Source: an uncultured Spirochaetota bacterium
Lineage (GTDB): Bacteria > Spirochaetota > Brevinematia > Brevinematales > JAOACQ01
Direction of reading: 5' to 3'
DNA: 64,000 nt
Assembly: GCA_963768055.1 (NCBI GenBank)
Contig: CAVYGN010000001.1
Span: forward strand, 1,736,867 to 1,800,866
A program made the translations under genes and the position numbers. Below the pieces are notes generated by a model. That model was not told the origin of the DNA, did no database searches, and saw only the letters and a program-made list of their open reading frames with translations. How positions within the stretch are numbered: position 1 is the first letter of the stretch; the number at the start of each line of letters is the position of its first letter. This document shows positions 7,139-51,442 of this stretch, one piece after another.

Positions 7139-7148
7139 AGGGGCTTCA

Positions 7149-11415: not shown

Positions 11416-11423
11416 GGGGGGCC

Positions 11424-11801
11424 ATGGAAAACGATCTGAATAAAAAGCTTATATGCATAAGGTGCCCCAGGGGCTGTGAAATTCAGACCTCCCTGGACGG
11501 ATATGGGATAATCACCTCCATAAGCGGTAATTTCTGCAAACTCGGGGATGATTACGCAAAGACCGAGCAGAGAGACCCCAGAAGGACCGTCACTACTACA
11601 ATAAGGGTTAAAAACGGGAACTACCCGCTTTTACCGGTCTGGACTACGAAACCGATCCCAAAAGAAAAGATCTTCGAGCTTATCGATATGCTAAGAAATA
11701 TGGAATTGGATGCCCCTGTAGCCATCGGCCAGGTTGTCCTTGAAAATATTTTCAACCTGGGAATAGATGTAACGGCAAGTAAAAGCATTGCTAAGGCTTA
11801 A
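11424..11801 (+). CDS. DUF1667 CxxC metal-binding protein (small subunit of the glycerol oxidoreductase cluster)
   Basis: CIRCPRGC, GNFC-x-x-G and PRRTVTTT motifs. Confidence 0.88.
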   Translation: MENDLNKKLICIRCPRGCEIQTSLDGYGIITSISGNFCKLGDDYAKTEQRDPRRTVTTTIRVKNGNYPLLPVWTTKPIPKEKIFELIDMLRNMELDAPVAIGQVVLENIFNLGIDVTASKSIAKA

Positions 11802-35599: not shown

Positions 35600-36340
35600 T
35601 TATCTATAAGAATGCAATCCGGATAATAAAAAAGTTACGCCGAAGTAGTTGAACAGCATTGTCAGGGCGGCAGCGTAAATGAAAGCGCGGCGCAGGAAGA
35701 TTTTCCCGGCGTGCCTTTCCAGGATCAGCAGGATCAATGTAAAGAGGGCCCAGGTTTCTTTCGGGTCCCAGCTCCAGAAAGTCCCCCAGGAAAGCTGCGC
35801 CCAGAACCCTCCCGTTATTATCCCGAATGCGGTAAAATAAAAAGCCTGCTTCATTTCAGGTTCAAGATAATCTTCAGCCCTTTTTAAGCCTGCCTGGCCT
35901 AAGATTGTCAGGACAAGACCGATCGTAAGCGCCGCATAGCCGATGAATATTCCCGGCACATGGAACCATATCCAGAAAGATTCAAGCGCCGGGGGCCCCT
36001 CTCCCGCAATTTTCATTTCTTCAGGCATTAAAAAGGCTCCAGCCATTATTAAAACAGCGGGCACCAGGGCGAATGCCTTTATCTTTTCAGGAAAACGGGA
36101 CAGCAAAACGATCTTCACCGCATAGAGAAAAGCAAAAAAAACCATGGATTCGTACATTCCGGCGAAAGGGGCATGCCCTGCGGTAACTGCCCTTATGATT
36201 ATCCAGCAAACGAGGGATAAAATACCCGCATAGGCATAAAAAGAACTGCCGCGGATTTTAAAAAACAGATTTAATAAAATATAAAAAGCCAGCAAAACGC
36301 TGCCTGCGGAAAGCAGGAACGATTCAAGTACCAGCGTCAT
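35600..36340 (-). CDS. ccsA: Cytochrome c biogenesis protein CcsA/ResC (System II)
   Basis: WWD motif GGFWAQLSWGTFWSWDPKETWA, plus GHAPF-x-x-MYES, W-x-x-FHV and terminal GLHSY. Confidence 0.93.
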   Translation of the reverse strand: MTLVLESFLLSAGSVLLAFYILLNLFFKIRGSSFYAYAGILSLVCWIIIRAVTAGHAPFAGMYESMVFFAFLYAVKIVLLSRFPEKIKAFALVPAVLIMAGAFLMPEEMKIAGEGPPALESFWIWFHVPGIFIGYAALTIGLVLTILGQAGLKRAEDYLEPEMKQAFYFTAFGIITGGFWAQLSWGTFWSWDPKETWALFTLILLILERHAGKIFLRRAFIYAAALTMLFNYFGVTFLLSGLHSYR

Positions 36341-37047
36341 TTTTTCATACCTTCATCGCAGTCTGTATACTGACGGGGATAAAAAATAAAAACACCCGTT
36401 AAAAGGAGGAAAATTACCGAAAATACACCCAGGGACAGTAAAAAGGGGGAACTGACAAACCTCAGGACGCTTACAGTCCTGTAATTGTTTCTAATTATTC
36501 TGAAACCGTATTGCCGCAGGAGGGGAATATCGACGGACTTTTCATCGAAAAGGCCGCTGCTAAAAACCGCACCGGTTTTATCAGCCAGAACAAAATTGAA
36601 TATCATCCTTCCATTGATCCTTTCAAAGGGTTCAAATCTGAATATAAGCCCGTTTTCAGCGACAAGCTCCTCTTTCAAATCCGTCATATCAAAAGTACGG
36701 CCCCTGAAAGAAATCATCAAACTTTTAAATCCGAAATAATATCCTTTCTGATAGATATCCAATCCCTTAAACGAGGCCGGTTTATTGACCGATATTTCCG
36801 TGTAGGCGGAAGATCCTGGCGATAATATATCGATATCTGAAAAAATACAGGCCGTATTTCTCGAATTATTCGAAACTGTAAACAAACTCAGGCCGATTGT
36901 CGCAGGAACGCCCAATCCTGCAAGGCTGACCCTTTCACCCTCGCCTATTTCAATATCGACGGATTTTTGAGTGACCAATGCCAGAATAAAAAAAATAAAA
37001 AAAAGTAAGAAAGACCCATGTATCGCCCATAATTTTAAAGACTTCAT
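36337..37047 (-). CDS. Short ResB/CcsB-like cytochrome c biogenesis protein
   Basis: N-terminal TM with His (AIHGSF), the ResB hallmark ISVNKP-x-x-x-x-G-x-x-IYQ and a C-terminal TM. ATGA-coupled to ccsA. Confidence 0.75.
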   Translation of the reverse strand: MKSLKLWAIHGSFLLFFIFFILALVTQKSVDIEIGEGERVSLAGLGVPATIGLSLFTVSNNSRNTACIFSDIDILSPGSSAYTEISVNKPASFKGLDIYQKGYYFGFKSLMISFRGRTFDMTDLKEELVAENGLIFRFEPFERINGRMIFNFVLADKTGAVFSSGLFDEKSVDIPLLRQYGFRIIRNNYRTVSVLRFVSSPFLLSLGVFSVIFLLLTGVFIFYPRQYTDCDEGMKK

Positions 37048-38472
37048 CTAACGACCGGCCTTGAAGAACTTGATCTGATAGATATCCTGGGGCGTTTTTT
37101 TACCCTTTATTTTCCGGCCGGCCAGTATGTCGGCTTCCACCAGGTCCGGCACTGTCCTGTAAAAAGACTCCGTGGTCAGTATAGTGCCGGGCTTCGCCAT
37201 ATCACAGAGACGCGAAGCGACATTAACTGTGTCACCGATCACCGCGTACTCCCGGCGGTTTTTGCTGCCTATATTTCCCGCCAGCACTTCTCCGATATTG
37301 ATCCCTACGCCCACTTCGAGGCCCAGTTTAAGCGACTTGACCCTGTTGATAATTTCAAAAGCGCAATTTATCGCTGCCCTGCTGTCCTCGAATACGGCCA
37401 TTATCGCGTCCCCTATGAATTTATCCACGTCTCCGCCGCATTGCTCTACGGTCTCGGCCTGGGTTTCAAGGATCCTGTTAAGGTTTTCGATTACTTCCTC
37501 CTCCTTGTGGCTCTCGGTGTAAGCCGTGAATCCCCTGACATCCGAAAACAGGACGACTATATTTTTTCTTCTCTTGATCAGGGATAACTCACCGCCATTC
37601 TCGATCTGCGTCCTTGTAGATCCGGAAACATATTTTGAAAGTTTAAAACGCTCTTCAAGCCCCTTTATCATTATATTGATCCTCTGTGCCAGGCTGCCGA
37701 GTTCGTCCCTTCTTTTCAAATCGCACCTCGCGGTAAAATCTCCCTCCCCGAGGAGTTCTACCGCTTTGCCGATCTTCCTGATAGGGTTTATTACAAGGTT
37801 CCTGAAAAAAACGATCAGTACAAGGATCAGTATAACAGCGACCGATCCGAAGAATGCAATTATCAGGTCTCTCGCCCGGTCTATCTGTAGGTAAGTTTGG
37901 ACAAGCGACAACTTGTAACTTAAAACGCCCCTGAAGGGAAATTCGCTCCCATGGCACTTCATGCAATCCGACAGGTTAGTTATCGGGTAATAATATTCCA
38001 GTAGCTTCAGTTTTTCGTCAACATCCACCCTCCTGGTTTTACTTTTCAGCACGTCAGCCACATCGTCTTTGCCGTCCTCGATTTCGGCTTCAGTCCTCTT
38101 GTCCTGTATCCTGGGAGTTTCTTCGAAATAATAATTCGACTGGTGCGAATTTACATATTCTAGGGTTTTGTAATCGCTGAAAGCAAGCATGCCGTTTGTC
38201 CTGTATATAGAGATTTCCTTGTAATCCCCTTCATTCCTCAATTCCTCCATGCTTTTTACAAGAAGAGGGGCCTTGCCGTCCAGCATCATATTTCTGAGGA
38301 CTGTCGTAAGCGTTTCGGTGTTCAAGTTCAAACCCCGTTCAGCCTCGGCTATCAGGTTAGTCCTCTGCGTATAATACATAAAATATACTGTAAATATTCC
38401 GGTTATGAAGAGGACAGAGATTATCAGGGTTATTATCCTGAATTCAATCGATGAAAATCGCCCTGTTTTCAT
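37048..38472 (-). CDS. Membrane class III adenylate/guanylate cyclase with extracytoplasmic CxxCH heme-c sensor and HAMP domain
   Basis: TM, then a periplasmic domain with CMKCH (37951-37965), TM, HAMP (RDELGSLA), then LFSDVRGFT, DKFIGDAIM and IGDTVNVASRL. GGAGG RBS before ATG 38472. Confidence 0.9.
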   Translation of the reverse strand: MKTGRFSSIEFRIITLIISVLFITGIFTVYFMYYTQRTNLIAEAERGLNLNTETLTTVLRNMMLDGKAPLLVKSMEELRNEGDYKEISIYRTNGMLAFSDYKTLEYVNSHQSNYYFEETPRIQDKRTEAEIEDGKDDVADVLKSKTRRVDVDEKLKLLEYYYPITNLSDCMKCHGSEFPFRGVLSYKLSLVQTYLQIDRARDLIIAFFGSVAVILILVLIVFFRNLVINPIRKIGKAVELLGEGDFTARCDLKRRDELGSLAQRINIMIKGLEERFKLSKYVSGSTRTQIENGGELSLIKRRKNIVVLFSDVRGFTAYTESHKEEEVIENLNRILETQAETVEQCGGDVDKFIGDAIMAVFEDSRAAINCAFEIINRVKSLKLGLEVGVGINIGEVLAGNIGSKNRREYAVIGDTVNVASRLCDMAKPGTILTTESFYRTVPDLVEADILAGRKIKGKKTPQDIYQIKFFKAGR

Positions 38473-38694
38473 AGCGTCCTCCAGGATGATAAGAAAGTGC
38501 TCTAAAGTGATTATCAAATATAATTAAATTGCATACGATTTGTCAATAAATAAATTGCAACTTCGAGTAGCGGGTAAACGGTTTTTAGTTACAAATTTTA
38601 TTCTGGTAACTCGTTACTTGTTACTATCGACAAAAACATGCAAAATCCTGATGGGATATATATAATAATATTATGAATTGCAAGGAGGGTCTCT

Positions 38695-39024
38695 ATAATA
38701 AAAAAGTTGCTGATATCTATCCTTTTAATAATCCCCGTATTAACTTTTGTTTATCCCGCAGGGGCTGAAGAGACCTTTTTCAATGCCGCTGCCAAAGGCG
38801 ATGTTTTGTTTATTAAAAATTATAAAGGCAATGTTAACGCGGCGGATAAAAACGGTATGACGGCTTTGATGCTGGCGGCCCAAAACGGACGATCTGAAAC
38901 TGTTGAATTATTGATCACGGATAAGGCCGACGTTAATATCGCGGATAATAATGGTTATACGGTTTTATCGCTGACAAAATATCCTTCTATTATAAATCTT
39001 TTGAAAAAAGCCGGCGCAAAATAA
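38695..39024 (+). CDS. Secreted ankyrin-repeat protein (copy 1)
   Basis: Signal peptide; DKNGMTALMLAAQNG...ADVN. The RBS-spaced in-frame codon is ATA 38695, with an alternative TTG at 38707. Confidence 0.75.
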   Translation: MIKKLLISILLIIPVLTFVYPAGAEETFFNAAAKGDVLFIKNYKGNVNAADKNGMTALMLAAQNGRSETVELLITDKADVNIADNNGYTVLSLTKYPSIINLLKKAGAK

Positions 39025-39049
39025 TCTTTCCGCACAGGAGGAGTTTTCA

Positions 39050-39697
39050 ATGAAATTGCTGCCTGTTTTAATTATATTAATTATCACCGCCTTCAGCTTT
39101 GTCAATCCTGAAGAGGTTTATTCTGAAGGGGGCCAAGAAACTTTGATAGAGGCCGTTACAAACGGCGATGCAGCTTTTATTAAAAGTTATAAAGGCGATG
39201 TAAACGCGGCGGATGAAAACGGTGAAACGGCTTTGATGTATGCGGCCGTCGAAGGAAAAACTAACGTAATAAAAGCATTGATCGTGGCGAAAGCCGATGT
39301 CAACGCAATGGATAAAAACGGCAGGACCGCTTTAATGGCCGCGGCCAATAAGGGAGGAATTACCGCTGTTAAAATGCTGATAAAGGCAAAGGCTAATATA
39401 AACACGGCGGACAAGGACGGCTGCACGGTTTTGATGGCGGCGGCACAGAACGGGTACACAGATATAATTAAACTATTGATCGAGGCCCGGGTTAATGTCA
39501 ATGCGGCGGATAATAAAGGTATGACGGCTTTAATGCATGCATCCAACTGGGGTCAGATTGATATTGTCAGGGCATTGATCGTGGCGAAAGCCGATGTCAA
39601 CGCAATGGATAAAAACGGCAGGACCGCTTTGAATTACGCTTCCCTGCATGGCCAATCGGGTATAATGGAAATTTTGATCAATGCCGGAGCGTATTAA
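39050..39697 (+). CDS. Secreted ankyrin-repeat protein (copy 2, about 5 repeats)
   Basis: AGGAGG RBS and repeated G-x-TALM-x-AA...ADVN units. Confidence 0.92.
   Translation: MKLLPVLIILIITAFSFVNPEEVYSEGGQETLIEAVTNGDAAFIKSYKGDVNAADENGETALMYAAVEGKTNVIKALIVAKADVNAMDKNGRTALMAAANKGGITAVKMLIKAKANINTADKDGCTVLMAAAQNGYTDIIKLLIEARVNVNAADNKGMTALMHASNWGQIDIVRALIVAKADVNAMDKNGRTALNYASLHGQSGIMEILINAGAY
39275..39630 (+). repeat. Exact 59-bp direct repeat inside the ankyrin gene
   Basis: 39275-39333 is identical to 39572-39630. The offset is 297 bp, or three 33-aa repeats. Confidence 0.9.
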
Positions 39698-39999: not shown

Positions 40000-40027
40000 G
40001 CTGGTAAAATATCGGTTGGAGGGTTAT

Positions 40028-40564
40028 ATGGTTACGGTTGCATCGAAAAAGATTTTCCTGGCTTTAGCAGAGTATAACAAAAAAGTAAATGAGGAACTTC
40101 TGGCCATCCTCGGGGACCTCCCTGAAGAACAGCTCCATAGGAAAACGAAGGCGTTTTATTCTTCCGTTTTCGGGACCCTTTATCATATTTTTTCATCGGA
40201 CCATAGCTGGATAAAGCGTTTTAACAGCTTTTTCCAGGAAAATAAATCGCTTAATTCCACCGGGTTTATATCCCTCGATTTAAAATCGCTTATCAATGAC
40301 AAGGGGTTCGGTGTTAAAGAGCTTTTCCGGTATAGAAAAGAGATGGACGAAGCAATATCCCGCTTTATAGGCGAGCTGGACGAGGAAAAATTAAATTCGG
40401 TTCTCAAATACAAAAATTACAAAGGAGAGCCGGTGGAAAAGGACCTCTGGAAAACCCTCCTGCAGATGTTCAACCACCAGACTCACCACCGGGGATCCAT
40501 CTCTGCAATGCTCGATATGATGGGGGTCGATAACGATTATTCTACCCTTTTGACGAAGATATAG
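40028..40564 (+). CDS. DinB-family protein
   Basis: YN-x-x-x-N, SVFGTLYHI and FNHQTHHRG motifs. Confidence 0.9.
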   Translation: MVTVASKKIFLALAEYNKKVNEELLAILGDLPEEQLHRKTKAFYSSVFGTLYHIFSSDHSWIKRFNSFFQENKSLNSTGFISLDLKSLINDKGFGVKELFRYRKEMDEAISRFIGELDEEKLNSVLKYKNYKGEPVEKDLWKTLLQMFNHQTHHRGSISAMLDMMGVDNDYSTLLTKI

Positions 40565-40634
40565 AGAAGGATTTAAAAAAATATACCGGTCCTTCATTAA
40601 AATGTTTGGAATGTTTTATAACGGGAGGTTTTCA

Positions 40635-41117
40635 ATGACGCAAAAAATGTACCTCAAGACCTTTCTCCTTGCGGCGCTTGTCTGTATTGCGCTTGGCGGA
40701 TTTCTTCTCCATTTCGGCATCCACCCTATCTTCGGCGAAAGGGCGCTCTTAGCCGATTTTGTACCCTTCGTCGCCGGACTGATGACCATTTTTATCGTTA
40801 CTTCCCTGTTCCTGATAAAGGGCATGATGCCCTTTGCATACCTCATGAACGGAATGTTAGTCATAATCGGGGCGATCACAATGACGACATATTCGGTAAC
40901 GCCGCAGCATTTCCCACTATGGCCTGATATCCTTGTATTATTCACGGTTTTCTGCATAGGCAAGCTCCTTTTCGAGGTCGAAATGACAGTCGAGGCCAAC
41001 CTGGTTAAACTCAGGCACAAGGGAAGGTTCTTCAGATATCCCAATATGGGATACTGGTTCGTACATTTAGTCACCCTGTCCGTCGTTTTTGCCCTCGGGC
41101 ATTTTCTATGGATGTAA
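40635..41117 (+). CDS. Hypothetical polytopic membrane protein with several membrane-associated His
   Basis: About 5 TM helices; LLHFGIHP and GYWFVHLVTLSVVFALGHF. GGGAGG RBS before ATG 40635. Confidence 0.75.
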   Translation: MTQKMYLKTFLLAALVCIALGGFLLHFGIHPIFGERALLADFVPFVAGLMTIFIVTSLFLIKGMMPFAYLMNGMLVIIGAITMTTYSVTPQHFPLWPDILVLFTVFCIGKLLFEVEMTVEANLVKLRHKGRFFRYPNMGYWFVHLVTLSVVFALGHFLWM

Positions 41118-41260: not shown

Positions 41261-41947
41261 CTACGCGTTTCGGGGCTTGAACAGCTTTTTTAATAACACC
41301 GGGACTACAGAAAATAGCGCGAGCAGCAGAAGCGCCGATATGATAGGCCATGACAGTATGCCCGACGCGGATTTGAGGTTGCCAAGGTTGCTCCCCGCAT
41401 AGGCGTAAACAAGGGACCCGGGAATGATGCCGGCCGAGGTTGTCCATAAGAAAGTAAAAAATCCGATCCTTGTCATTCCGGCAAGAATGTTTATAAGGAA
41501 AAACGGGATCGCCGGTATAAATCTCAGCATGAGCAGGTAATTGACACCGTTCGATTTTATCTCCGCATTGAAATTTTTAAGGTTTTCAGAGTATTTTTTC
41601 TGTACAACCTCGCCGATAAAATAACGCGCCGCGAAAAAGGAGCCTGAAGCCCCGAGTGTAGCACCGACGTTAACATATAGCGCAGCCGGTATGGTACCGA
41701 ACAAAAAACCGCCGGCCAGTGTGAGTATTGCCGCTCCCGGGACGGATAAAGCGGTGACTGCAAAATAGACCCCCGTGTAAATCAGTACCGACCATAAATA
41801 ATTTTCCTTAACAAGGTTTTTTATTGTATCTCTCGAGTTCACGAGGTTTTTAAAAGTCAGTTCTTTAGCTACCCCTGTAATGTTTATGACTATAACGGCG
41901 GAGGCGATCAATAAAATAAAAATAACCGGTTTTATCCATTGTTTCAT
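41261..41947 (-). CDS. TVP38/TMEM64 (DedA/VTT, YdjX/YdjZ-like) membrane protein
   Basis: SVPGAAILTLAGGFLFG, GATLGA, LRFIPAIPFFLIN and GIIPG motifs. Confidence 0.92.
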   Translation of the reverse strand: MKQWIKPVIFILLIASAVIVINITGVAKELTFKNLVNSRDTIKNLVKENYLWSVLIYTGVYFAVTALSVPGAAILTLAGGFLFGTIPAALYVNVGATLGASGSFFAARYFIGEVVQKKYSENLKNFNAEIKSNGVNYLLMLRFIPAIPFFLINILAGMTRIGFFTFLWTTSAGIIPGSLVYAYAGSNLGNLKSASGILSWPIISALLLLALFSVVPVLLKKLFKPRNA

Positions 41948-43377
41948 GGCTTATTCCTCCTGCCCCGCCCTGCAATCTTCCCCGCCAATTTTACCAGCGG
42001 GTTGTTAAGTAAGCTGTCGACATAGGCATCCCTGGCTGCCTGCCTGATAATGTCCGAATATGAGGGATACGCATGCATGACGGACTGCAGGCTTGCGAAG
42101 GGCTTTCTGAAAAACCGGACGAGTTGTGCCTCATGGATCAGCTCTCCGGCGATCTTCCCGGCGATATGAGCCCCGATAAGCCTTCCATTGCGGTCAAGGA
42201 TATATTTGGCAAGGCCATCTTCATTACCTTCGGTCTTCGCCCTGTCCAGTCTTGAATAAGGCATCCTGTAAACCTTTACGCCTTTTTTATACTTTGCCCT
42301 GGCTTCTTCCTCGGTTAGGCCGAGGTGTGAAAGTTCCGGATCGGTATATGTCGTCCATAATACCTGGCTGAGGTCCTGTTTACGCATAAATGGGATCGAT
42401 GCGTTGATCCCCGCTGTAACGCCCTGATATCCTGCGACATGGCTGAAATTATAGGGACCGACTACATCGCCGCAGGCAAAAATATTCTTTACATTTGTCT
42501 GCAGGAAGGCGTTTACCCCGATGCCTTTCTTTGAATACCTGACTCCGGCCGCGGAAAGATTGAAACCCTCCACCTCAGGCACCCTGCCTGCGGCCACCAG
42601 CAGGGCCTCCGCTTTGAGATCGGAAACGTCCCCTGACTCCTTTTTTATTGTTAAGGTTACACCTCCGGCTTCATCGAATCTTTCTGCCCTTATGGCCCTG
42701 GACCCCGTCACAATGCTAACGCCTTCTGAAAAGAGGCGTTTTAATACTATATCCACGAGTTCCCTGTCCTCCCTTATCAAAATTCCGGGCGTCGCTTCCA
42801 CCACCGTAACCCGTGTGCCAAGGCGGTTGAATGCCTGGGCAAGTTCTATCCCTATAGGACCTCCTCCCAGAATTATAAGTGAATCCGGCACTTTCTTTAT
42901 ATCAAAAATACTCTCGTTAGTGTAATATTTTATTTTATCGATCCCCTCTATCCCGGGAATCAATGGAGAAGAGCCCGCCGCGACAATAAATTTTCCTGAA
43001 CTGATACTTTTCCCGTTTACAGTGATAGAATTCCTGCCGGTGAATAGCGCCTTGCCCATTATCACCTTTATCCCGGCCTTTTCAAAGCTTTCGGGATTTT
43101 CTTCCAAATAAACCCTTTCTATCGTCTCTCTCACGAACCGCATAGGAATTTCACCCGGAGAGAATGAATTTCCGAAGTAAGCAGAGGCCTCATGATAGCG
43201 CTCCGCGGCATGTATAAAAGCCTTGCTGGGGACGCATCCGCTCCATGTGCATTCGCCCCCGAGTCTGTTTTTTTCAACGATCGCCGTTTTTTTTCCGAGC
43301 CCCTTTGCCGTTTTAACCGCCGAAATCCCGGCGGCACCGGCTCCGATAACGATAACATCAAAATCAAATTTTGGCAT
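41944..43377 (-). CDS. Pyridine nucleotide-disulfide oxidoreductase (LpdA/MerA-like class I)
   Basis: GAGAAG, redox pair GGECTWSGCVPSK, GGGPIG and HAYPS motifs. It lacks the MerA C-terminal Cys pair. Confidence 0.9.
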   Translation of the reverse strand: MPKFDFDVIVIGAGAAGISAVKTAKGLGKKTAIVEKNRLGGECTWSGCVPSKAFIHAAERYHEASAYFGNSFSPGEIPMRFVRETIERVYLEENPESFEKAGIKVIMGKALFTGRNSITVNGKSISSGKFIVAAGSSPLIPGIEGIDKIKYYTNESIFDIKKVPDSLIILGGGPIGIELAQAFNRLGTRVTVVEATPGILIREDRELVDIVLKRLFSEGVSIVTGSRAIRAERFDEAGGVTLTIKKESGDVSDLKAEALLVAAGRVPEVEGFNLSAAGVRYSKKGIGVNAFLQTNVKNIFACGDVVGPYNFSHVAGYQGVTAGINASIPFMRKQDLSQVLWTTYTDPELSHLGLTEEEARAKYKKGVKVYRMPYSRLDRAKTEGNEDGLAKYILDRNGRLIGAHIAGKIAGELIHEAQLVRFFRKPFASLQSVMHAYPSYSDIIRQAARDAYVDSLLNNPLVKLAGKIAGRGRRNKP

Positions 43378-44731
43378 TTTCCCCCCTTCTTATTTCCAGG
43401 GCCGAAGGACCGGCCAGAAATGCCCTTGTCCTGGGCATGCCGCCGAGGTTTATCTTTTTCAGGTCATGTACCGTGTCTATATCTCTCATTCTGGGAAGGA
43501 GAGCCGTTTTTATTTCCTTATCCGCGAGAACTCTAAGGGTCAGGGAAAATACGGATGAAGTGCTCCAGGGAATATTATCGAAAACTTCCGGCAAAAAGTG
43601 CCTGGAGTTGAAGCCGATCAGGTAATAACCCCCGTCTTCCGCCGGCCCGATCACCGCCCCTTTTTTTCTAAGAAGCCTCAGGGACCTGTTGAGCCTGCCG
43701 GCCGATATATGCGGAATATCGCTCCCGATTAATACAAGTCTCCCGTAGCCGAGGCCGAACTGTTCCTTTAATGCGTTCTTCATCCTTTCGCCAAGGTCAT
43801 TGCCCTTCTGAGGGAAGATGGAAATCTTTAAGCCGAGCCAATTCCTGAAATCAAAGGCCCTCTCTTCCGGAGTAAAATAGACAAGCAGGTCCGGGGAAAG
43901 CCTTGCGGCCTTTTGAATGATATCGGCAACGAAACTGCGGTAAAGATCGATGGTGAAATGATCGCCGAGGACGCTCCCGATCCTGGTTTTAACCATCCCC
44001 TCCTCCGGATATTTTACAAAAACAATCAATCCATTTTTAACCCGTTCTCCCCGTAAAATGGCAAGATCCGCCGGGTCCGCGTTTAAAGAATATAAAATGG
44101 AAACCAGCCTGTTGATTAACAGGGTTTTAAGATAACCCTTTTTTTCCCATCTTCTGGCAGATGTAATAACCCTGTCTTTCAAGATAGTTACTTTCATGCC
44201 GTTTCTTTTTATTCTTTTAACAAACTCGACATCTTCCATTATTGGAATATCTGCAAAACCCCCCGCCCTGTTAAAAGTTTCTTTTTTAATGAAAAAAGCC
44301 TGGTCTCCGTAAGGGACCCCGCTTAAACTGCAGCGAATTCCGGACGCCCATTCGATAATCCTGAAAAAAAAATGGTTTGAATCGATAGATAATCTAAAAG
44401 CTCCCAAGCCGCCGTTTCTTTCGATTACATTTATAATTTTTTTTAAAGCCCCTCCCGGGAGTCTGCTGTCCGCGTGAAGGAAAAGGAGGATGTCTCCCTT
44501 AGCTTTAGCCGCCCCGGCGTTCATTTGGACTCCCCTGCCCTTTTCCGAACTTAACCTTACAATATCATAATCCTCGACGGCTTTTATCGTCTTAGCCTCT
44601 TTTTCACCGTCGATAACTATTATCTCTATCCGGTCCCGGGAATAATCGTCTTTCAATAAAATAGATTCAATCGTTCCCCGGATTACATCGCTTTCATTGA
44701 ATACAGGAATAATGATAGACAGTTCAGGCAT
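43364..44731 (-). CDS. Fused TIGR04283-like GT2 glycosyltransferase + TIGR04282/DUF2064 (CofC-like) transferase
   Basis: N-half: IIIPVFNE, FLHADS, YGDQ, IMEDVE, TSARRW. C-half: K-x-P-x-x-G-x-VKTR, GNDLGERM, IGSDIP, GPAEDGGYYLIG, IPWST, DID. Confidence 0.88.
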   Translation of the reverse strand: MPELSIIIPVFNESDVIRGTIESILLKDDYSRDRIEIIVIDGEKEAKTIKAVEDYDIVRLSSEKGRGVQMNAGAAKAKGDILLFLHADSRLPGGALKKIINVIERNGGLGAFRLSIDSNHFFFRIIEWASGIRCSLSGVPYGDQAFFIKKETFNRAGGFADIPIMEDVEFVKRIKRNGMKVTILKDRVITSARRWEKKGYLKTLLINRLVSILYSLNADPADLAILRGERVKNGLIVFVKYPEEGMVKTRIGSVLGDHFTIDLYRSFVADIIQKAARLSPDLLVYFTPEERAFDFRNWLGLKISIFPQKGNDLGERMKNALKEQFGLGYGRLVLIGSDIPHISAGRLNRSLRLLRKKGAVIGPAEDGGYYLIGFNSRHFLPEVFDNIPWSTSSVFSLTLRVLADKEIKTALLPRMRDIDTVHDLKKINLGGMPRTRAFLAGPSALEIRRGENAKI

Positions 44732-44741
44732 AGAACCTCAT

Positions 44742-45473
44742 TTATTTCGTCATTTCTTTTAGAAACTTCCTGATCCTTGCGGCGTTCGTGCCGAAATCTC
44801 CTACGCCTACCCTTGATTCCGACCTTATATCAACCCTGCTGCCGCTGCCGCTTTTTGTAACGCGGATAACTATATCATCCTTGAAACCCATCCAGAATGT
44901 TGTGGCTGTCGCTTCAATCCGTCCGCCGTCCCTGTCCGATGCGACGATCTTCCATCCCATTGAGCTTGAAACCGCCAGCGCCTTGTCGAAGGCGTCTCCT
45001 GCCGATATTGTTAAAAACAGCGGTTTAATATCGGGATAAAATTTTTCCTGCTGGGCGGAAATAGCCGCTCCTTCATATTCCGGCTTGTTTGCCGCATCCT
45101 TCCTGAGTGCCAGGATATCTACAAACTTCGGCGGATTCTGGGTGTCGGTTGTGATATCATGAATCCTGGGCATATGTTTGGAGTAAAGGTTCCATGGCCC
45201 TGCCGCTATGAGAAGGCCGAAGACTATCCCTGCGATACCGTATAAGTAGCCGCCTCTGCCGCCTGTAATAAAACCTAGTATCAATCCTATTGCCGAAACC
45301 GCGGCCGCAGCAAAACCGGCCGCCATAGATATGAATACCAGCCGCACGATTGTACCGGTTTGAAGGAAATTGAACCTGTTGCCCAGGGAGGCCAGGATAA
45401 ATGTTGCAAGCGCCAGGATTGCAATAATAAAACCTCCCGCCAGAATACCGGTAACCCACGTATTCTTTTTCAT
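44742..45473 (-). CDS. DUF1499 membrane protein
   Basis: PRIHDITTD, IEATATTFWMGFKDDIVIRV and RSESRVGVGDFGTNAARI motifs. Confidence 0.9.
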   Translation of the reverse strand: MKKNTWVTGILAGGFIIAILALATFILASLGNRFNFLQTGTIVRLVFISMAAGFAAAAVSAIGLILGFITGGRGGYLYGIAGIVFGLLIAAGPWNLYSKHMPRIHDITTDTQNPPKFVDILALRKDAANKPEYEGAAISAQQEKFYPDIKPLFLTISAGDAFDKALAVSSSMGWKIVASDRDGGRIEATATTFWMGFKDDIVIRVTKSGSGSRVDIRSESRVGVGDFGTNAARIRKFLKEMTK

Positions 45474-45619
45474 TGCATTTCTCCTTTCATTTTTATTTTT
45501 ATAATATTATATTTTACATAATATTCATTATAAAAATAATATGCCCGGAATTATAAGGCAAGTACTTGTGCAAAAACAATCGATAAAAGATAATATTTAA
45601 CTGATAGGATTTTATAGAT

Positions 45620-46591
45620 ATGAACAAAATAACCGAGGCTAAGGCCCATGTAAAACATTTTTTAACCGGGAGCGGCTGGCTCGGACATATAGATTCCGTT
45701 TCATTTCTTGCTTCCGGGGAATATAATACAAATTTTATTGTTAAAAGCGCCGGTAAGTTTTTCGTATTCCGCATTAATTGCGGCAGCCAGCTCGGTCTCG
45801 ACGATCAGATAGGCTACGAATTCCGATGCCTCAAATTGCTTGAAAACACAGGGGTAACTCCAAGGGCCTATTTTTATGAACCCCCGGGGGTAAATTTCAA
45901 AAGGGGGGCCCTGCTTGAAGAATATATCGCGGGGAAACCCCTGAATTACCGTAAAGACCTTGATGCTGCGGCATATATTTTTTCAAGGGTGCATGATATC
46001 CATGACAGAGGCGGACTGATTCCCCAGGAAGATCCCGTCAGAGCCATTGCTGAAGAAAGCATTTCGCTTCTCAACAAATATCCCCGGTCCGAATACATGG
46101 AAGCGTACTCATTATTAACAGGAATATATGAAAACCTGGCGGTAAACATGGAAGGCCCCGGGTCGGTCTTTTCAGGGGAAGATCTTTGCGTGGTTAACAC
46201 CGAAGTCAATTCGGCGAACTTTATCGTAGGCAAAATGGGGCAATATCTGGTAGACTGGGAAAAGGCCGTCTTTTCTTACCGTTACCAGGACCTGGCCCAT
46301 TTTATGGCAAAAACGACGACCCTCTGGAAAACGGATTATTATTTTTCAAAAGAAGACAGGACAGCTTTTATCAGGGCATACTCCGATTTAATAAAAGATA
46401 AATATACGCTGACTTTCAAACAGGTCATGGACAGGACTGAAATTATGGAGAAAGCCGTGTTGCTCCGGGCGTTATCATGGTGTTATATGGCATATTATGA
46501 ATATATGCATCTTCCGCGTCCGATAAAGAATATGAAAACACTCAAAAAGATAAGGGAATATCTGGGCGGTGCTGAATGGTTCTTAAAATAG
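45620..46591 (+). CDS. APH/choline-kinase-fold phosphotransferase
   Basis: GEYN-x-N, FRIN-x-GSQ, catalytic loop NTEVNSANF, LVDWEK and DLAHF motifs. Confidence 0.82.
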   Translation: MNKITEAKAHVKHFLTGSGWLGHIDSVSFLASGEYNTNFIVKSAGKFFVFRINCGSQLGLDDQIGYEFRCLKLLENTGVTPRAYFYEPPGVNFKRGALLEEYIAGKPLNYRKDLDAAAYIFSRVHDIHDRGGLIPQEDPVRAIAEESISLLNKYPRSEYMEAYSLLTGIYENLAVNMEGPGSVFSGEDLCVVNTEVNSANFIVGKMGQYLVDWEKAVFSYRYQDLAHFMAKTTTLWKTDYYFSKEDRTAFIRAYSDLIKDKYTLTFKQVMDRTEIMEKAVLLRALSWCYMAYYEYMHLPRPIKNMKTLKKIREYLGGAEWFLK

Positions 46592-47493
46592 AAGGTATTA
46601 CCAAAAGCTATAAAAATCTGAATGTTTTAAAAGGAATCGATTTTTCAATTAAAAAAGGCGAGCTTGTATCGATTATAGGCCCGTCGGGCGCAGGCAAAAC
46701 CACCCTTTTAAAGATCATTGCAGGTCTTGAAAATCCTGACTCGGGAAGCGTAACAAATCTCTCTTCCTCTCCCGCCATACTTGTTTTCCAGGATTACCTG
46801 CTCTTCCCCATGATGAACGTATTCGAAAATGTCGCTTTCGGGCTCCGGGCTCGCCGCATGGATAGAATGACGATTGCCGGAAAGGTCGAAGGAATTCTCA
46901 GGAGCTTCTCTCTTGAAAATAAACTTAAGGCCTATCCCGCCGAGCTTTCTTCGGGACAGAAGCAGAGAGTTGCGATTGCGCGGGCCATGGTCCTTGACCC
47001 GGATATCCTCCTTCTCGACGAGCCTTTTGCGAACCTGGACAAAAACCTCAAGCTTGAAATGGCCGAATTTATCAGATCAAAACAGAAAGAATATAAAACA
47101 ACTACACTCCTTGTCACCCATGACCAGCAGGAGGCTTTTATCGTATCTGACAGGATAGGTATAATGGTCGAAGGATCTATGATCCAATACGATACGGTCG
47201 AAAATGTTTACACCAAACCAGTATCGATCGAGGCGGCTTCGTTTCTGGGCCATGTGAACATTATCCCTGAAAAATTCAAGGATAAACTCTGCGTAAAGAT
47301 GGATTGGGCCCGGGCGGAATCTTTTCGTATCGAGAAAGATGCTGACGGGCCCGCCGAAGTGCGCGATGTGACTTTTGCCGGCCACTATATAATATACCGT
47401 GTTTTATGGGAAGACTGGGTCTGTACAGTGTACCGGCTTGAAGGCGGCATTGAAAAGGGAGAGCATGTGCGTCTTATGCTTGGAAAATGTTGA
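46576..47493 (+). CDS. ABC transporter ATP-binding protein (PotA/YnjD-like)
   Basis: GPSGAGKT, LSSGQKQR, LLLDEPF and VTHD motifs. Confidence 0.93.
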   Translation: MVLKIEGITKSYKNLNVLKGIDFSIKKGELVSIIGPSGAGKTTLLKIIAGLENPDSGSVTNLSSSPAILVFQDYLLFPMMNVFENVAFGLRARRMDRMTIAGKVEGILRSFSLENKLKAYPAELSSGQKQRVAIARAMVLDPDILLLDEPFANLDKNLKLEMAEFIRSKQKEYKTTTLLVTHDQQEAFIVSDRIGIMVEGSMIQYDTVENVYTKPVSIEAASFLGHVNIIPEKFKDKLCVKMDWARAESFRIEKDADGPAEVRDVTFAGHYIIYRVLWEDWVCTVYRLEGGIEKGEHVRLMLGKC

Positions 47494-47550
47494 CTTACAT
47501 ATTCCAAAATATTATTTTAATTGTATGTTTATCTGAAAAAAGAGGTTATT

Positions 47551-48756
47551 ATGAAAATTGTTATAATGTCGGTTTTAACAGCCCTTGTTTTATCATGCGC
47601 CAGGGTCCAGGAGACGGACTGGCTTTCAAAACCTTTTTCCGAGATAGAGACAGCGGCGAAGGATTCGACAGTCCGCTTCTATATGTGGGGCGGGTCGGTC
47701 AGTATAAACGGATGGGTTGACGGTTATGTGACGCAGGAATTAAAATCCCGGTACGGCATAACCCTGGTCCGCATTCCCGTCGATACCAGATTGATAGTTA
47801 ACAAGCTTCTCACGGAAAAGCAGGCCGGGAAAATAAAGGGGACCATAGACCTGGTCTGGATAAACGGCGAAAACTTCATGAACGCCTTCGAGAACGGCCT
47901 TCTTTTCGGGCCTTTTGCCGGAAAACTTCCTAATTATACGAATTATATCGATCCGGCCGCCTCCGGCTACGATTTCGGATTTCCGGTAAACGGGTTTGAG
48001 GCGCCATGGGGACGGGCCCAGTTCGTCTTTGAATACGATTCGGCGAAGATCAAAAACCCGCCCGGAAGTTTCAGGGATTTATTGAATTGGGTAAAGGCCA
48101 ATCCCGGACGATTTACCTATCCCCAGCCTCCGGATTTTACAGGATCGGCTTTCATCAGGCAGGCGTTTTACGCTTTTACCGGAGGCTATTCCCAGTATAT
48201 GAACGGATTTGATAAAAAACTTTTCAGCTCTAAATCCGCATTTTTGTGGAAATACCTTAACTCCATGAAGCCTTATTTATGGCAGAAGGGAAAAATATTT
48301 CCAAGGGACATCGCGGCTCTGGACAGCCTCTTCGAGAGGGGGGAGGTGGATTTTAACATGTCGTACCACCAGGCGGATGCAGAAAACCGTATAATTGCCG
48401 GCCGCTACCCGGTGACAGTAAGGACCTTCGTTATGAAAGAGGGTTCTGTTTACAACACTCACTTTACCGCTATACCCTATAACTCTCCGAACAAGGCGGG
48501 GGCCATGGTCGCGGCAAATTTCCTGATGTCACCGGAGGCGCAGTATTCAAAGAACAAACCCTCGAATTGGGGAGATTTTACTGTCCTGGATCTTAACCGG
48601 CTTCCCGCCGACTGGAAAAAGAAATTCCTGGAATTAGACCTCGGCAAGGCCACTCTTCCTATCGATATTCTTTCAAAATACGGGGTCCCCGAGATTCCCT
48701 CCGGATACGTCGAAGAGCTGGAAGACGGCTGGAAAAACAAGGTATTGACAGAATAA
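47551..48756 (+). CDS. ynjB: ABC substrate-binding lipoprotein, YnjB-like
   Basis: Lipobox VLSC; MWGG, DLVWINGENF, PWGRAQ, NPGRFTYPQPPDFTG, NTHF-x-AIP and SPEAQ motifs. Confidence 0.75.
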   Translation: MKIVIMSVLTALVLSCARVQETDWLSKPFSEIETAAKDSTVRFYMWGGSVSINGWVDGYVTQELKSRYGITLVRIPVDTRLIVNKLLTEKQAGKIKGTIDLVWINGENFMNAFENGLLFGPFAGKLPNYTNYIDPAASGYDFGFPVNGFEAPWGRAQFVFEYDSAKIKNPPGSFRDLLNWVKANPGRFTYPQPPDFTGSAFIRQAFYAFTGGYSQYMNGFDKKLFSSKSAFLWKYLNSMKPYLWQKGKIFPRDIAALDSLFERGEVDFNMSYHQADAENRIIAGRYPVTVRTFVMKEGSVYNTHFTAIPYNSPNKAGAMVAANFLMSPEAQYSKNKPSNWGDFTVLDLNRLPADWKKKFLELDLGKATLPIDILSKYGVPEIPSGYVEELEDGWKNKVLTE

Positions 48757-48768
48757 GGGCTATCCGAT

Positions 48769-49641
48769 ATGAAAACAGGTTTTCCAGGGTCTGTATTTCC
48801 GAACCTGCTAACGCTTTTCATCCCTTTTATGTTATTCGCTGCAGGTATAGGCTTTACAATACTGCAGTCTTTCTGCATTGCCGGTTTTTCCTACCATTAC
48901 CCTTCGCCCCTGTTCGCTTATGATACATTATTCAAGGGGGGATGGTTTATTAATTCATGGCTCTTTTCACTTTACACGGCTTTTGTTTCGGCTGCGGGGG
49001 CAACGGTTATCGGTTCATTGATATCATGGTGGATATGGAACCTTCCGTTCGAAATACGGCGATTCGCTATTTCTCAGAGGATCTTCCTGATCCTTCCCCA
49101 TGTAGCCGTTGCATACATTATTATAATTTTATTAGGTAAAACCGGCATAATATCCTCGGTCCTGTACCACATCGGTTTAACCAGCAGCCCGGGAGATTTC
49201 CCTTCCCTTGTTTTTACGGGCAACGGGATCGATATAATCTCCGGGTATATTCTTAAGGAGGTGCCTTTCGTCATGGTCCTGGTTTTCGGGATATTGTCGA
49301 AACTGGATCCCAGGCTGGTGGAAACAGCCGGGATGCTGGGCGCCGGGAAATTTACTATATTTTTCAGGATTGTCGTTCCATTCATAATGCCGGTGCTTAA
49401 CACATCGTTCATTATACTCTTTATTTATAGTTTCGGGGCTTTTGACCTTCCGTATGTCCTGGGGGACAGCTATCCCGGAATGCTGTCGCTTCGGGTTTAC
49501 GAGTATTATTTTCAGAGGGACCTTTATTACAGGCCGGTCGCGATGGCCGTTCTCTCTCTCATTTTTATATTTTCGATATTCTTCGTGTTCTTATATAGCC
49601 GCCTTGTAGGAAAGTTGAGTAACGATGTGAGGAAGATATGA
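48769..49641 (+). CDS. ABC permease (YnjC N-half-like)
   Basis: LPHVAVA, KEVPF and the EAA loop ETAGMLGA. Confidence 0.88.
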   Translation: MKTGFPGSVFPNLLTLFIPFMLFAAGIGFTILQSFCIAGFSYHYPSPLFAYDTLFKGGWFINSWLFSLYTAFVSAAGATVIGSLISWWIWNLPFEIRRFAISQRIFLILPHVAVAYIIIILLGKTGIISSVLYHIGLTSSPGDFPSLVFTGNGIDIISGYILKEVPFVMVLVFGILSKLDPRLVETAGMLGAGKFTIFFRIVVPFIMPVLNTSFIILFIYSFGAFDLPYVLGDSYPGMLSLRVYEYYFQRDLYYRPVAMAVLSLIFIFSIFFVFLYSRLVGKLSNDVRKI

Positions 49642-50426
49642 GAAGACACCGGCTTTCCCTCCTTATATACAACCTTATATTCATACTTCCCGCAGTCGTC
49701 CTTTTATTTTACGCCCTGTCTTCGATGTGGAAATACCCTGATATCATCCCCCGCAAATTCGATTTACATGGTGCTGCATTTGCCGTCAGGGAAATTAACG
49801 GCATCCTCCGGGGCCTCTCTTTCTCTTTTTTGTATTCGATATGCTCGGCGGCGGTCGCCTTTTTAATGACGTTCCTTCCAGCCTCCATGTTTGCGGGAAG
49901 GAATTTCCCCTTCCGCGGCTTTCTCGAAGGACTTTTTCTTGCCCCGGCTCTTATCCCGGCGATGGCTTTTGCGTCAGGCGCACATTTTATTTTTATTAAA
50001 ATCGGTCTTTCCGACACCTTTCCCGGGGTGGTTTTCATCCTCTCCCTGGTCAGCTATCCATATATGCTGAGGGCCCTGACGGCAGGTTTCCAGGCTTTCG
50101 GGCCGGAATACGCCCAATGCGCCCGGAATCTCGGATCAGGAAAATTAAGGACCCTGTTCCTGGTTGAAATACCCCTCCTGGTCCCGGCGGTAATTTCCGG
50201 AGGATCTGTTGTTTTTCTCGTGGCTTTTTCCGAATATTTTCTTGTCTTTCTTATAGGAGGCGGGAGCGTGCCGTCATACACAGGATATTTAATTCCATTC
50301 CTCAATTCCTCGGACAGGAGCGCCGCTTCGACATTGACATTGATTTTTTTAATAATACCGGTATTATTATTTGCGCTAACCGACGGAGTTATATTGAGGA
50401 TCTACAGGAAAAAGGGTATAGTTTGA
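49638..50426 (+). CDS. ABC permease (YnjC C-half-like)
   Basis: W-x-YP-x-x-x-P, PYMLR, ARNLG and FSEY...IGGG motifs. ATGA-coupled to the upstream gene. Confidence 0.88.
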   Translation: MRRHRLSLLIYNLIFILPAVVLLFYALSSMWKYPDIIPRKFDLHGAAFAVREINGILRGLSFSFLYSICSAAVAFLMTFLPASMFAGRNFPFRGFLEGLFLAPALIPAMAFASGAHFIFIKIGLSDTFPGVVFILSLVSYPYMLRALTAGFQAFGPEYAQCARNLGSGKLRTLFLVEIPLLVPAVISGGSVVFLVAFSEYFLVFLIGGGSVPSYTGYLIPFLNSSDRSAASTLTLIFLIIPVLLFALTDGVILRIYRKKGIV

Positions 50427-50596
50427 CGGATTATAAGCAGTCAAAATTATCCTGCTTATTAAAAAAGCGAACTTTTTTGTAATATTCTGTCTTGCTTATT
50501 ATAATTCATATCAAATTATTCGGCGATTTGAATGGCCCTTAACAGCATTATAAGGTTCAAAACATCACATTAAACTTTTTACAGAGGAGATTGTTT

Positions 50597-51442
50597 ATGA
50601 AAAAAATCATGTTTGTTTTCTTATTTTGCTCCCTTTTATTTTCCATCTATTCCTGCATGGGCAACCGGTCTGTCAATTCGCCGATGAAAGCCGGTAAATT
50701 TCAGATCCGGGATAAAGAAATGAGCACTTATGCTGTATATAGGAATGGAGAAGAGACCAGCCTGGTCACCTTCGTGATCAAAACCAACGAAGACCCTGTA
50801 TGGGGAAAGACCGCTACAATGTATGAGTTTATCCAGATGATAACAAATATGAGAAAAATGCCAGACAATTACACGAATTTTGACGGTTACCATACCGTTT
50901 CCCTTGACAGGGCGTCCCTTGTGGAGGAGACAAGGAACTGGGAATTCGCGAAGGATGTGATAAAAGGCTACCCCTATTACCAGCATTATCAAATGAATAT
51001 CAAGGATGAAACATACGAATACACGGCAAGAACATGGTCGGGCGCCGAAACCCGGGAGAGCCATTCACGGATCAGGCTTAATAACAAGATGCAGTACCCC
51101 ATTTGGACCACGCAAAGCCTCGTGATGATAGGCATGCGCTTCCTCGATATAAAAAGCCCCGGCATAGTTTATCTGGTCGAACCCTGGATGCTCAAGGAAC
51201 CTATGCCCATAAGGGTTAAATACCTCGGCACGGAAGTGATCGAAACAAAGGCCGGCAGGTTTAAAACAATAAAAGAGACCATGGATATCGCCGACGTCTT
51301 CATCGGCAGGCTGCTGGAATCTTACACGAAAAATATGATCGCCTGGGTGGACGAGTCGTCGGGCAGGATGATCAAGCTTAAAGGTCCCGACGAGGACGAT
51401 TACCTGGAAAGCATTTCCGTTTTCACAAATCAGGCAAAATAA
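50597..51442 (+). CDS. Hypothetical lipoprotein (DUF3108-like C-terminus)
   Basis: Lipobox IYSC; GTEVIETKAGRFKT...IAWVD. Confidence 0.7.
   Translation: MKKIMFVFLFCSLLFSIYSCMGNRSVNSPMKAGKFQIRDKEMSTYAVYRNGEETSLVTFVIKTNEDPVWGKTATMYEFIQMITNMRKMPDNYTNFDGYHTVSLDRASLVEETRNWEFAKDVIKGYPYYQHYQMNIKDETYEYTARTWSGAETRESHSRIRLNNKMQYPIWTTQSLVMIGMRFLDIKSPGIVYLVEPWMLKEPMPIRVKYLGTEVIETKAGRFKTIKETMDIADVFIGRLLESYTKNMIAWVDESSGRMIKLKGPDEDDYLESISVFTNQAK

Follow-up and report, generated by a model that had tools for sequence, protein, structure and literature searches.

The transferase families TIGR04283 and TIGR04282 are named for arsenosugar synthesis solely through their co-occurrence with ArsS, and the locus described here raises the question of what may feed them where ArsS is absent. 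It lies in a 64,000-nucleotide stretch of DNA from an uncultured Spirochaetota bacterium (assembly GCA_963768055.1, contig CAVYGN010000001.1, positions 1,736,867 to 1,800,866; hereafter the window), in which both families are found in a single polypeptide. The gene for this fused transferase belongs to one of two divergent operons, and the other operon encodes a small-molecule kinase and an ATP-binding cassette (ABC) importer of the YnjB type. A preliminary description of the locus, made from its letters alone, had proposed that a small metabolite, possibly an organo-arsenic or thio sugar, is imported, phosphorylated, activated with a nucleotide and transferred, and that the product is flipped, by analogy with LicABCD.

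We hypothesise that the nine genes of the two operons constitute a salvage pathway feeding the TIGR04283 and TIGR04282 transferases, a reading to which we give about even weight. On the sequence evidence the two arms form one functional unit, because the nine-gene block recurs in other genomes, a comparable operon occurs in Ilyobacter, the kinase is linked to the transferases in a further Spirochaetes genome, and natural fusions join the kinase both to TIGR04282 and to an ABC ATPase. We rate the locus as a previously undescribed salvage variant of an annotated, uncharacterised pathway.

Layout and conservation of the two operons

Nine packed open reading frames (ORFs), at 41261-50426 of the window, form two divergent operons that flank a 146-bp spacer. 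The left operon, on the minus strand, runs from a DUF1499 protein through the fused transferase and a flavin disulfide reductase to a VTT/DedA-family membrane protein, and the right one, on the plus strand, from the kinase through the ATPase and the YnjB-family lipoprotein to two permeases. Intergenic gaps are no longer than 27 nt in both arms and there is overlap at four junctions, including 4 nt between the VTT and reductase genes and 16 nt between the kinase and ATPase genes. Families were assigned with Pfam and NCBIfam profiles, and bit scores are quoted below against their curated cut-offs. Together with the ORF list, these profiles confirmed the ORF positions and every family that the preliminary description had named in both arms. 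Two small corrections concern the right arm, where the ATPase gene is second, directly after the kinase gene, and where the permease is encoded by two genes, against the single fused ynjC of E. coli.

For the locus scan the fused transferase and 24 relatives were aligned and one genome per species was searched, giving 418 relatives from which the best 80 loci were kept; crude ORFs of these loci were clustered, cluster representatives were named, and the contents were checked with tblastn. All nine proteins are present in three of the 80 loci, namely L001 and L002, from Brevinematales bins, with 58-81% identity and the same arrangement, and L058, from another Spirochaetota bin. From these matches the window probably stems from a relative of the Brevinematales. 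Co-occurrence of the arms in other genomes, which the preliminary description had set as a test, is therefore observed. In L058 a DDE transposase gene (5946-7118, minus strand) separates the ATPase gene from the YnjB gene, and the pair of permease genes is inverted, so that the importer operon may be disrupted there. A flanking gene that in the window lies to the right of the block (50591-51442) sits beyond the left arm in L002; the block has thus been kept intact in differing surroundings.

Two further architectures are independent of this block. The first of them is found in Ilyobacter (L003 and L004), where six genes on the same strand, with gaps of at most 15 nt, encode a 436-residue kinase, the fused transferase, YnjB, two permeases and the ATPase. 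This kinase belongs to the MtnK family (TIGR01767, 455.6 bits, cut-off 275) and has no detectable similarity to the window kinase (BLASTP E 1.6), and thus an unrelated kinase occupies the same slot. AmgK matched the Ilyobacter kinase only, and weakly (E 0.0017). A nucleoside hydrolase gene lies near the Ilyobacter operon on the other strand. In the other, in a high-GC Spirochaetes bin (L008), a window-type kinase gene is directly upstream of genes for the glycosyltransferase family 2 (GT2) and DUF2064 transferases, the reductase and the VTT protein; the importer is absent from this 14-kb contig.

Natural fusions provide a further connection. The kinase family is well conserved, and its members are annotated only as phosphotransferases. 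A word-indexed search gives 776 relatives, and a profile of the family detects 1083 representatives at E ≤1e-3, of which 476 remain at 1e-10 and 185 at 1e-30. Among the best 150 representatives, 22 are long proteins (471-662 residues) with the kinase domain at the C-terminus, and these were scanned for domains together with three of 403-440 residues, 25 in all. An N-terminal DUF2064/CofC domain is present in 21 of the 22, above the TIGR04282 cut-off in 18 and at 116-119 bits (cut-off 134) in the other three, and the remaining long protein (P0437) is a fusion of an ABC ATPase with the kinase. Of the three shorter proteins, one matched APH only and two were without a family. It follows from the kinase::TIGR04282 fusions that the kinase works in the same pathway as the TIGR04282 enzyme, the simplest reading being that their steps are consecutive.

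The fused transferase and the usual context of its families

The fused transferase (43364-44731, minus strand, 455 residues) scores above the cut-off of both NCBIfam models. Residues 4-224 match TIGR04283 (233.7 bits, cut-off 182) and form a GT2 domain, whose closest named relatives are MftF of mycofactocin, dolichol-phosphate mannose synthase and glucosyl-3-phosphoglycerate synthase. Residues 235-424 match TIGR04282 (188.2 bits, cut-off 134), the DUF2064/CofC-like half, which in a profile search also matches PDB 3cgx (E 6.8e-73), deposited as a putative nucleotide-diphospho-sugar transferase, and has a weak match to CofC guanylyltransferase in Pfam and NCBIfam. The protein has no hydrophobic segment. 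It has 3479 relatives, many with the identical fusion; in most of the 80 loci GT2 and DUF2064 are separate genes.

The usual context of the TRANSFERASES (80 loci) includes ArsS in 20/80, an ArsM-like methyltransferase in 12, DUF547 in 10 and the reductase and/or VTT protein in 33. The reductase and/or VTT protein also accompanies 12 of the 20 ArsS loci, and a typical planctomycete gene order is GT2, ArsM, ArsS, DUF547, DUF2064, reductase and VTT. As reductase and DedA genes thus belong to ArsS-type clusters too, they are general parts of the pathway and not special to the variant in the window. The product of ArsS, which adenosylates dimethylarsenite, is 5'-deoxy-5'-dimethylarsinoyl-adenosine (PMC13598754).

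A plasmid collection searched with the transferase gave 62 records, all below 60% identity, and two of these were examined. On a plasmid of Acinetobacter portensis (L082) the annotated order is arsS, a TVP38/FAD oxidoreductase fusion, DUF547, TIGR04283, TIGR04282, a methyltransferase, a phosphate transporter, mtnP and a sterol desaturase. This cluster occupies 3090-12147 of the mobilizable 333-kb plasmid pJNE5-X3_NDM-1, and thioredoxin, CcdA and peroxiredoxin genes adjoin it. The second plasmid, from Burkholderia thailandensis, carries a gene for methylthioadenosine phosphorylase directly upstream of TIGR04283 and TIGR04282, with a TVP38/oxidoreductase fusion close by. A literature search returned no function for YnjBCD or DUF1499, and no paper joining arsenosugars with MtnP, MtnK or TVP38; ArsS alone was covered.

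In eight loci from Thermodesulfobacteriota and other delta-proteobacterial genomes (L021, L052, L072, L063, L011, L013, L024 and L043) the transferases stand among matches to selenoprotein-family models, including the FtrB double-selenoprotein, a TsoB-like rhodanese and DVU0772. The same loci carry DUF255 thioredoxin-like, DUF3047 and MauE/DoxX-like genes as well as a second radical S-adenosylmethionine (SAM) gene. These neighbourhoods suggest a wider sulfur, selenium or arsenic redox context.

The window itself differs from the ArsS-type clusters. No relatives of ArsS, ArsM, MtnP or MtnK were found within the 64 kb by tblastn or by Pfam scans of its other ORFs, in agreement with the earlier statement that ArsS and ArsM are missing from the locus; DUF547 was likewise missing by tblastn, and no later methionine-salvage gene, the isomerase included, was among the window ORFs scanned. 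ArsS and ArsM relatives were also not detected by tblastn in the flanks of L001-L004, L008 and L058, and ArsS may be elsewhere in the genomes from which the window and these kinase/YnjB loci come. The preliminary description had suggested that the kinase and ynjBCD on the one hand and arsS and arsM on the other might be mutually exclusive partners of the transferases. The data are consistent with this, in that ArsS occurs in 0/6 kinase/YnjB loci against 20/74 others, but the difference is not significant (hypergeometric p ~0.17) and the six loci represent two or three independent lineages.

The importer

The YnjB-family substrate-binding lipoprotein (47521-48756, plus strand, 411 residues) far exceeds the cut-off of its NCBIfam model (NF008633/PRK11622, 523.4 bits, cut-off 203) and, across 373 residues, shares 38% identity with YnjB of E. 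coli. Its signal peptide ends in a lipobox-like LVLSC. The permease and ATPase genes adjoin it: the ATPase (46576-47493, plus strand, 305 residues) matches ABC_tran (E 7.9e-32) and resembles the PotA and PhnT types below their cut-offs, and both permeases (48769-49641 and 49638-50426, plus strand) match BPD_transp_1, have several hydrophobic segments and have orthologues in L001-L004 and L058. The AlphaFold2 (AF2) model of the YnjB-like protein has a predicted local distance difference test (pLDDT) score of 92.7, and its structural neighbours, at 12-20% identity, are cluster-D binders of aminoethylphosphonate, polyamines, sugar phosphates, thiamine and iron. Searches against PDB sequences gave only E 6e-4 to polyamine-binding proteins.

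YnjB relatives are numerous, with 5354 at E ≤1e-3 among the candidates scored. The match lists of the kinase and of YnjB agree on the source and exact size of eight contigs besides the window's own (2744431, 122767, 76025, 35023, 16165, 7819, 6398 and 3497 bases). Chance alone should produce roughly one such agreement, in the shortest contigs, and not eight. The kinase + YnjB module is therefore widespread, and identity within it is 46-49% for the kinases and 60-64% for YnjB.

The kinase

The kinase (45620-46591, plus strand, 323 residues) matches APH (PF01636, 30.9 bits, cut-off 23.2), and its AF2 model (pLDDT 91.7) has the bilobal APH/choline-kinase fold. A Foldseek search with this model returned APH(9), choline kinases, LicA and homoserine kinase with a probability of 1.00 and template modelling (TM) scores of 0.55-0.66. 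Its catalytic loop, N193-T-E195-V-N-S-x-N200, aligns with the H-x-D-x-x-x-x-N motif (H-C-D-V-N-H-N-N in PDB 7s3l), and N-T-E-V-N-S-x-N is invariant in all 34 family members aligned; the metal-binding motif D212-W-E214 is retained. Against PDB sequences the best match was E 0.93 with the sequence alone and 8e-4 with a profile, ESM Atlas gave generic 'phosphotransferase' clusters only, and no match to the kinase was found in the plasmid collection.

The presence of choline kinases and pneumococcal LicA among these fold neighbours bears on the LicABCD analogy drawn in the preliminary description, in which choline, ethanolamine or an arseno- or thio-analogue would be imported, phosphorylated, activated to a nucleoside monophosphate derivative by the DUF2064 enzyme, in the manner of LicC or CofC, and placed on a surface glycan or lipid. 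The kinase has a weak match to the Choline_kinase Pfam family (E 2.9e-4), CofC relatives of DUF2064 activate phosphate esters that are not sugars, and YnjB shares a structural cluster with polyamine- and aminoethylphosphonate-binding proteins. However, the Choline_kinase score of 20.7 bits is under the cut-off of 29, none of the nine proteins belongs to the LicB, LicC or LicD families, and the transfer enzyme is a GT2 glycosyltransferase. Moreover, the kinase slot in Ilyobacter is filled by MtnK, a sugar C1 kinase, and the ArsS and MtnP neighbours of the transferases indicate ribose derivatives. We consider decoration of this kind unlikely; the analogy is a loose one, and the feeding of a nucleotidyltransferase and a glycosyltransferase by MtnK or MtnP is the better comparison.

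Accessory membrane and redox proteins

The last gene of the left operon encodes the VTT/DedA-family membrane protein (41261-41947, minus strand, 228 residues; PF09335 E 5.7e-26, 91.8 bits, cut-off 33.9), which has hydrophobic segments and shares 29-32% identity with YdjX and YdjZ of E. coli. It is not an UptA equivalog, as it scores 29.8 bits where the cut-off is 250. Upstream of it, the class I pyridine-nucleotide disulfide oxidoreductase (41944-43377, minus strand, 477 residues) consists of Pyr_redox_2 (E 7e-60) and a dimerisation domain and falls below every NCBIfam equivalog cut-off. Its redox-active pair is C43-x4-C48, and C302 is the only other cysteine. The best PDB sequence matches of the reductase are mercuric reductase and dihydrolipoyl dehydrogenases, and an identity as MerA was considered and rejected because the C-terminal cysteine pair is absent; the TIGR02053 score, 313.7 bits, is also below its cut-off of 454.45. 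On proteobacterial plasmids the reductase is fused to the VTT protein.

The DUF1499 protein (44742-45473, minus strand, 243 residues), the product of the first gene of the left operon, matches PF07386 (E 3.5e-26) over residues 106-240 and has three N-terminal hydrophobic segments, at 4-34, 40-72 and 74-94. Orthologues stand in the equivalent position in L001, L002 and L058, and other DUF1499 genes lie near transferases in L032, L058, L062 and L071; a comparison with PDB sequences gave nothing meaningful. Genes for fatty-acid hydroxylases or sterol desaturases recur in 9/80 transferase loci, L008 and L058 among them.

The repeated presence of membrane partners, namely DedA, DUF1499 and the fatty-acid hydroxylases, hints that the acceptor is a lipid or that one step takes place at the membrane; a soluble riboside product is equally possible. 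A broader form of the latter is that the same enzyme steps lead to an intracellular metabolite or cofactor-like molecule, for example a glycerol glycoside or a redox-active small molecule, which the flavin reductase keeps reduced and which, or whose precursor, DedA moves across the membrane. This would suit a fused transferase without a membrane segment and a disulfide reductase as a constant partner, and the nearest named relatives of the transferase halves belong to cofactor and solute pathways (MftF, CofC of F420 and glucosyl-3-phosphoglycerate synthase). In addition, soluble ribosides of glycerol derivatives are what the classical arsenosugars are (PMC6656958). The recurring membrane partners named above speak against it, and overall we judge such a soluble end product rather unlikely.

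Spacer and flanking genes

The spacer (45474-45619) is AT-rich, as the preliminary description had noted, with a GC content of 21%, whereas that of the cluster is 46% and that of the whole window 43%. Promoter-like sites, which are consensus matches only, occur on both strands (plus 45513-45540, minus 45534-45506). They overlap a palindrome, TATTAT-AAAA-ATAATA (45520-45545), which the window has in common with L001 and L002 and, in part, with L058. This element may be an operator, or it may represent no more than the two -10 regions. A search of the whole window with Rfam at the gathering threshold gave no matches, and so the spacer holds no known riboswitch.

Beyond the left arm, a DinB-family gene (40016-40564, plus strand) is convergent to the VTT gene, and it also adjoins the VTT gene in L001 and L002 (62% identity). 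An ORF of 171 residues between the two (40602-41117) has no family match. Further away, genes at 35600-39697 encode CcsA-like and short ResB-like cytochrome c assembly proteins, a HAMP-adenylate/guanylate cyclase and two ankyrin-repeat proteins. Genes at 7149-11801 (plus strand) encode an FGGY sugar kinase, a DAO-family FAD oxidoreductase with a BFD-like 2Fe-2S domain, Pyr_redox_2 and DUF1667, and look like a glycerol or glycerol-3-phosphate oxidation cluster.

Proposed pathway

The family memberships, the operon structure and gene order, its conservation and the fusions were observed directly. From these we infer which compound is the substrate and where it is phosphorylated, that a nucleotide activates it, what accepts it and what the reductase, DedA and DUF1499 proteins may do, as follows. 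The YnjB-like lipoprotein, the two permeases and the ATPase would take up a free sugar of small size. A 5-deoxy-5-substituted ribose is the most likely kind, with 5-deoxy-5-dimethylarsinoyl-ribose, 5-methylthioribose and 5-deoxyribose as candidates. The APH-fold kinase would phosphorylate the imported sugar, presumably at C1 as MtnK does, the DUF2064/CofC-like half would join the phosphate ester to a nucleotide, and the GT2 half would hand the sugar to an acceptor, maybe a membrane lipid. We view the CxxxxC flavoprotein, the DedA/VTT protein and the DUF1499 protein, which is membrane-anchored, as conserved accessory components that may deal with this product at redox and membrane steps.

MtnK and MtnP, enzymes of methionine salvage, each yield a 5-substituted ribose 1-phosphate. 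In other phyla the transferases may be fed de novo, with ArsM and ArsS giving 5'-deoxy-5'-dimethylarsinoyl-adenosine, from which a methylthioadenosine phosphorylase can release the ribose 1-phosphate. We propose uptake and C1 phosphorylation for the window because ArsM and ArsS with a phosphorylase, an importer with MtnK, and an importer with the new kinase would then all give a 5-deoxy-5-substituted ribose 1-phosphate. The import, phosphorylation, nucleotide activation and transfer put forward in the preliminary description fits the conserved block, the Ilyobacter operon, L008 and the fusions, and its guess of an organo-arsenic or thio sugar comes close to the context given by the Ilyobacter MtnK, the plasmid phosphorylases and ArsS, which is that of a 5-deoxy-5-substituted ribose 1-phosphate. 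The idea of an import-kinase-transferase system is in this sense largely borne out, and the earlier interpretation as a whole is partly supported, with flipping by the DedA protein as a conjectural element.

Several observations weigh against this salvage pathway. The first set concerns the connection between the arms. The kinase + YnjB module is common on contigs outside the transferase match list, which shares only two contig sizes (2744431 and 10823) with the kinase + YnjB lists; the contig of 2.74 Mb holds the kinase, YnjB and the transferase together. Moreover, among the 80 loci no Thermodesulfobacteriota locus carries the module at a distance of 10 kb or less from the transferases; the link between module and transferases may be limited to certain lineages, or act at a distance. 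The right arm could then be an ordinary nutrient importer with its own kinase beside a leftover ArsS-type cluster, the shared spacer being a coincidence of lineage, and it is in keeping with this that the full nine-gene block was seen in related Spirochaetota only. Such an accident would not explain the 21 kinase::TIGR04282 fusion proteins, the same-strand Ilyobacter operon of MtnK, transferase and importer, or the linkage of the kinase to the transferases without the importer in L008, and we regard it as very improbable. A tree of the GT2 domain was built by a quick search from 81 rows, with none left out, seven of them linked to the kinase or YnjB (the six loci and the window). Six of these seven fall in a weak group with support of 83, while L008 is placed apart, beside an ArsS-type sequence. 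A single origin of the kinase/YnjB-linked transferases is thus neither shown nor excluded.

The second set concerns the chemistry of the proposed salvage pathway. In the kinase, Glu replaces the catalytic Asp and Asn replaces His, and with so atypical a catalytic loop normal kinase chemistry is an assumption. Its best NCBIfam matches are weak (GntI, 39.6 bits against 357, and ThiK), TIGR01767 is not among them and so it is not an MtnK, and its fold neighbours do not discriminate substrates. Neither can the ligand class of the YnjB-like protein be read from its structure, given the mixed fold neighbours. MtnK is present in 2/80 transferase loci and a weak MtnP-like match in 1/80, so that the idea of a ribose 1-phosphate draws on Ilyobacter and the two plasmids, and as CofC relatives of DUF2064 also act on phospho-acids the phosphorylated compound need not be a sugar. 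The pathway is known here from genes alone, and the literature search returned nothing on the function of TIGR04282, TIGR04283 or DUF2064.

In a more specific form of the salvage pathway, which we put forward tentatively, anaerobic heterotrophs would scavenge free 5-deoxy-5-dimethylarsinoyl-ribose or 5-methylthioribose that other organisms have released, taking it up through the YnjBCD-type importer for incorporation into membrane glycolipids of their own. The scavengers would be Brevinematales, other Spirochaetota and Ilyobacter, and possibly many Thermodesulfobacteriota. If this is true, the kinase, TIGR04282 and TIGR04283 would be the long-missing late steps in the formation of arsenosugars or arsenosugar lipids, from ribose 1-phosphate through a nucleotide sugar to a riboside, and the orphan YnjBCD of E. 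coli would serve to bring in a 5-substituted ribose or nucleoside. Should 5-methylthioribose or an arsenosugar fragment prove to be the substrate, the locus would represent a new route for the recycling of SAM by-products or organoarsenicals in sediment and gut anaerobes. An importer and a kinase in place of the arsenic-specific early enzymes, together with the natural fusions, suggest a concrete and assayable order of reactions, and offer a first functional lead for E. coli YnjBCD, for the widespread pair of DedA and flavin disulfide reductase, and for a large and conserved kinase family with Glu instead of the catalytic Asp.

Comparison with known systems

A first comparison is with the ArsS/ArsM clusters that NCBI annotates for arsenosugar biosynthesis (TIGR04167 with TIGR04283 and TIGR04282), with which the window has in common both transferase families, the flavin reductase and the VTT/DedA protein. 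They differ in that the window has an ABC importer and a kinase in place of ArsS, ArsM, DUF547 and MtnP, which we propose to mean uptake of a ready-made precursor as opposed to its synthesis from arsenite and SAM. The fusions also differ, the window having the transferases as one polypeptide and the reductase and VTT protein as two, whereas on the Acinetobacter and Burkholderia plasmids the latter two are fused.

The entry into methionine salvage through MtnK or MtnP is alike in its proposed chemistry, a 5-substituted ribose 1-phosphate being formed in each case. However, the window kinase, though of the same fold as MtnK, comes from a different family, and its product would go to the transferases and not to methionine. 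Pairs of a sugar C1 kinase, with the APH fold or another, and a nucleotidyltransferase are also known from other salvage routes, such as AmgK and MurU for N-acetylmuramic acid, and the bifunctional fucokinase/GDP-fucose pyrophosphorylase. These resemble the present system in that the two activities are sometimes carried by one polypeptide, as in the 21 kinase::TIGR04282 fusions, although the families differ from those of AmgK and MurU, DUF2064 not being of the MurU/GlmU type.

The E. coli cluster ydjX-ydjY-ydjZ-ynjA-ynjB-ynjC-ynjD, with its two DedA proteins, is as the preliminary description had stated. It is similar in having a YnjB orthologue, a YnjC-type permease and an ATPase beside DedA/VTT proteins and YnjA, an AhpD-like protein of thiol-redox type, but it lacks a kinase, TIGR04282, TIGR04283 and a flavin reductase, and has YdjY and YnjA instead; its permease is a single fused ynjC, where the window has two genes. 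LicABCD follows the same logic of import, kinase, nucleotide activation and transfer, and LicA is a fold neighbour of the kinase. The window, by contrast, lacks every Lic family; it has an ABC importer, its transfer enzyme is a GT2, and the context suggests a pentose and not choline.

Finally, the methylthioxylose capping of Mycobacterium tuberculosis offers a parallel for the proposed product. There, MtxS (Rv0539) puts a 5-methylthio-pentose on polyprenyl phosphate and MtxT (Rv0541c) then places it on lipoarabinomannan (PMC8780516, PMC12088412), so that a 5-deoxy-5-thio-substituted pentose enters a glycoconjugate via a lipid-linked donor. The use of such a sugar by MtxS and MtxT is a precedent for 5-substituted pentoses in glycoconjugates.

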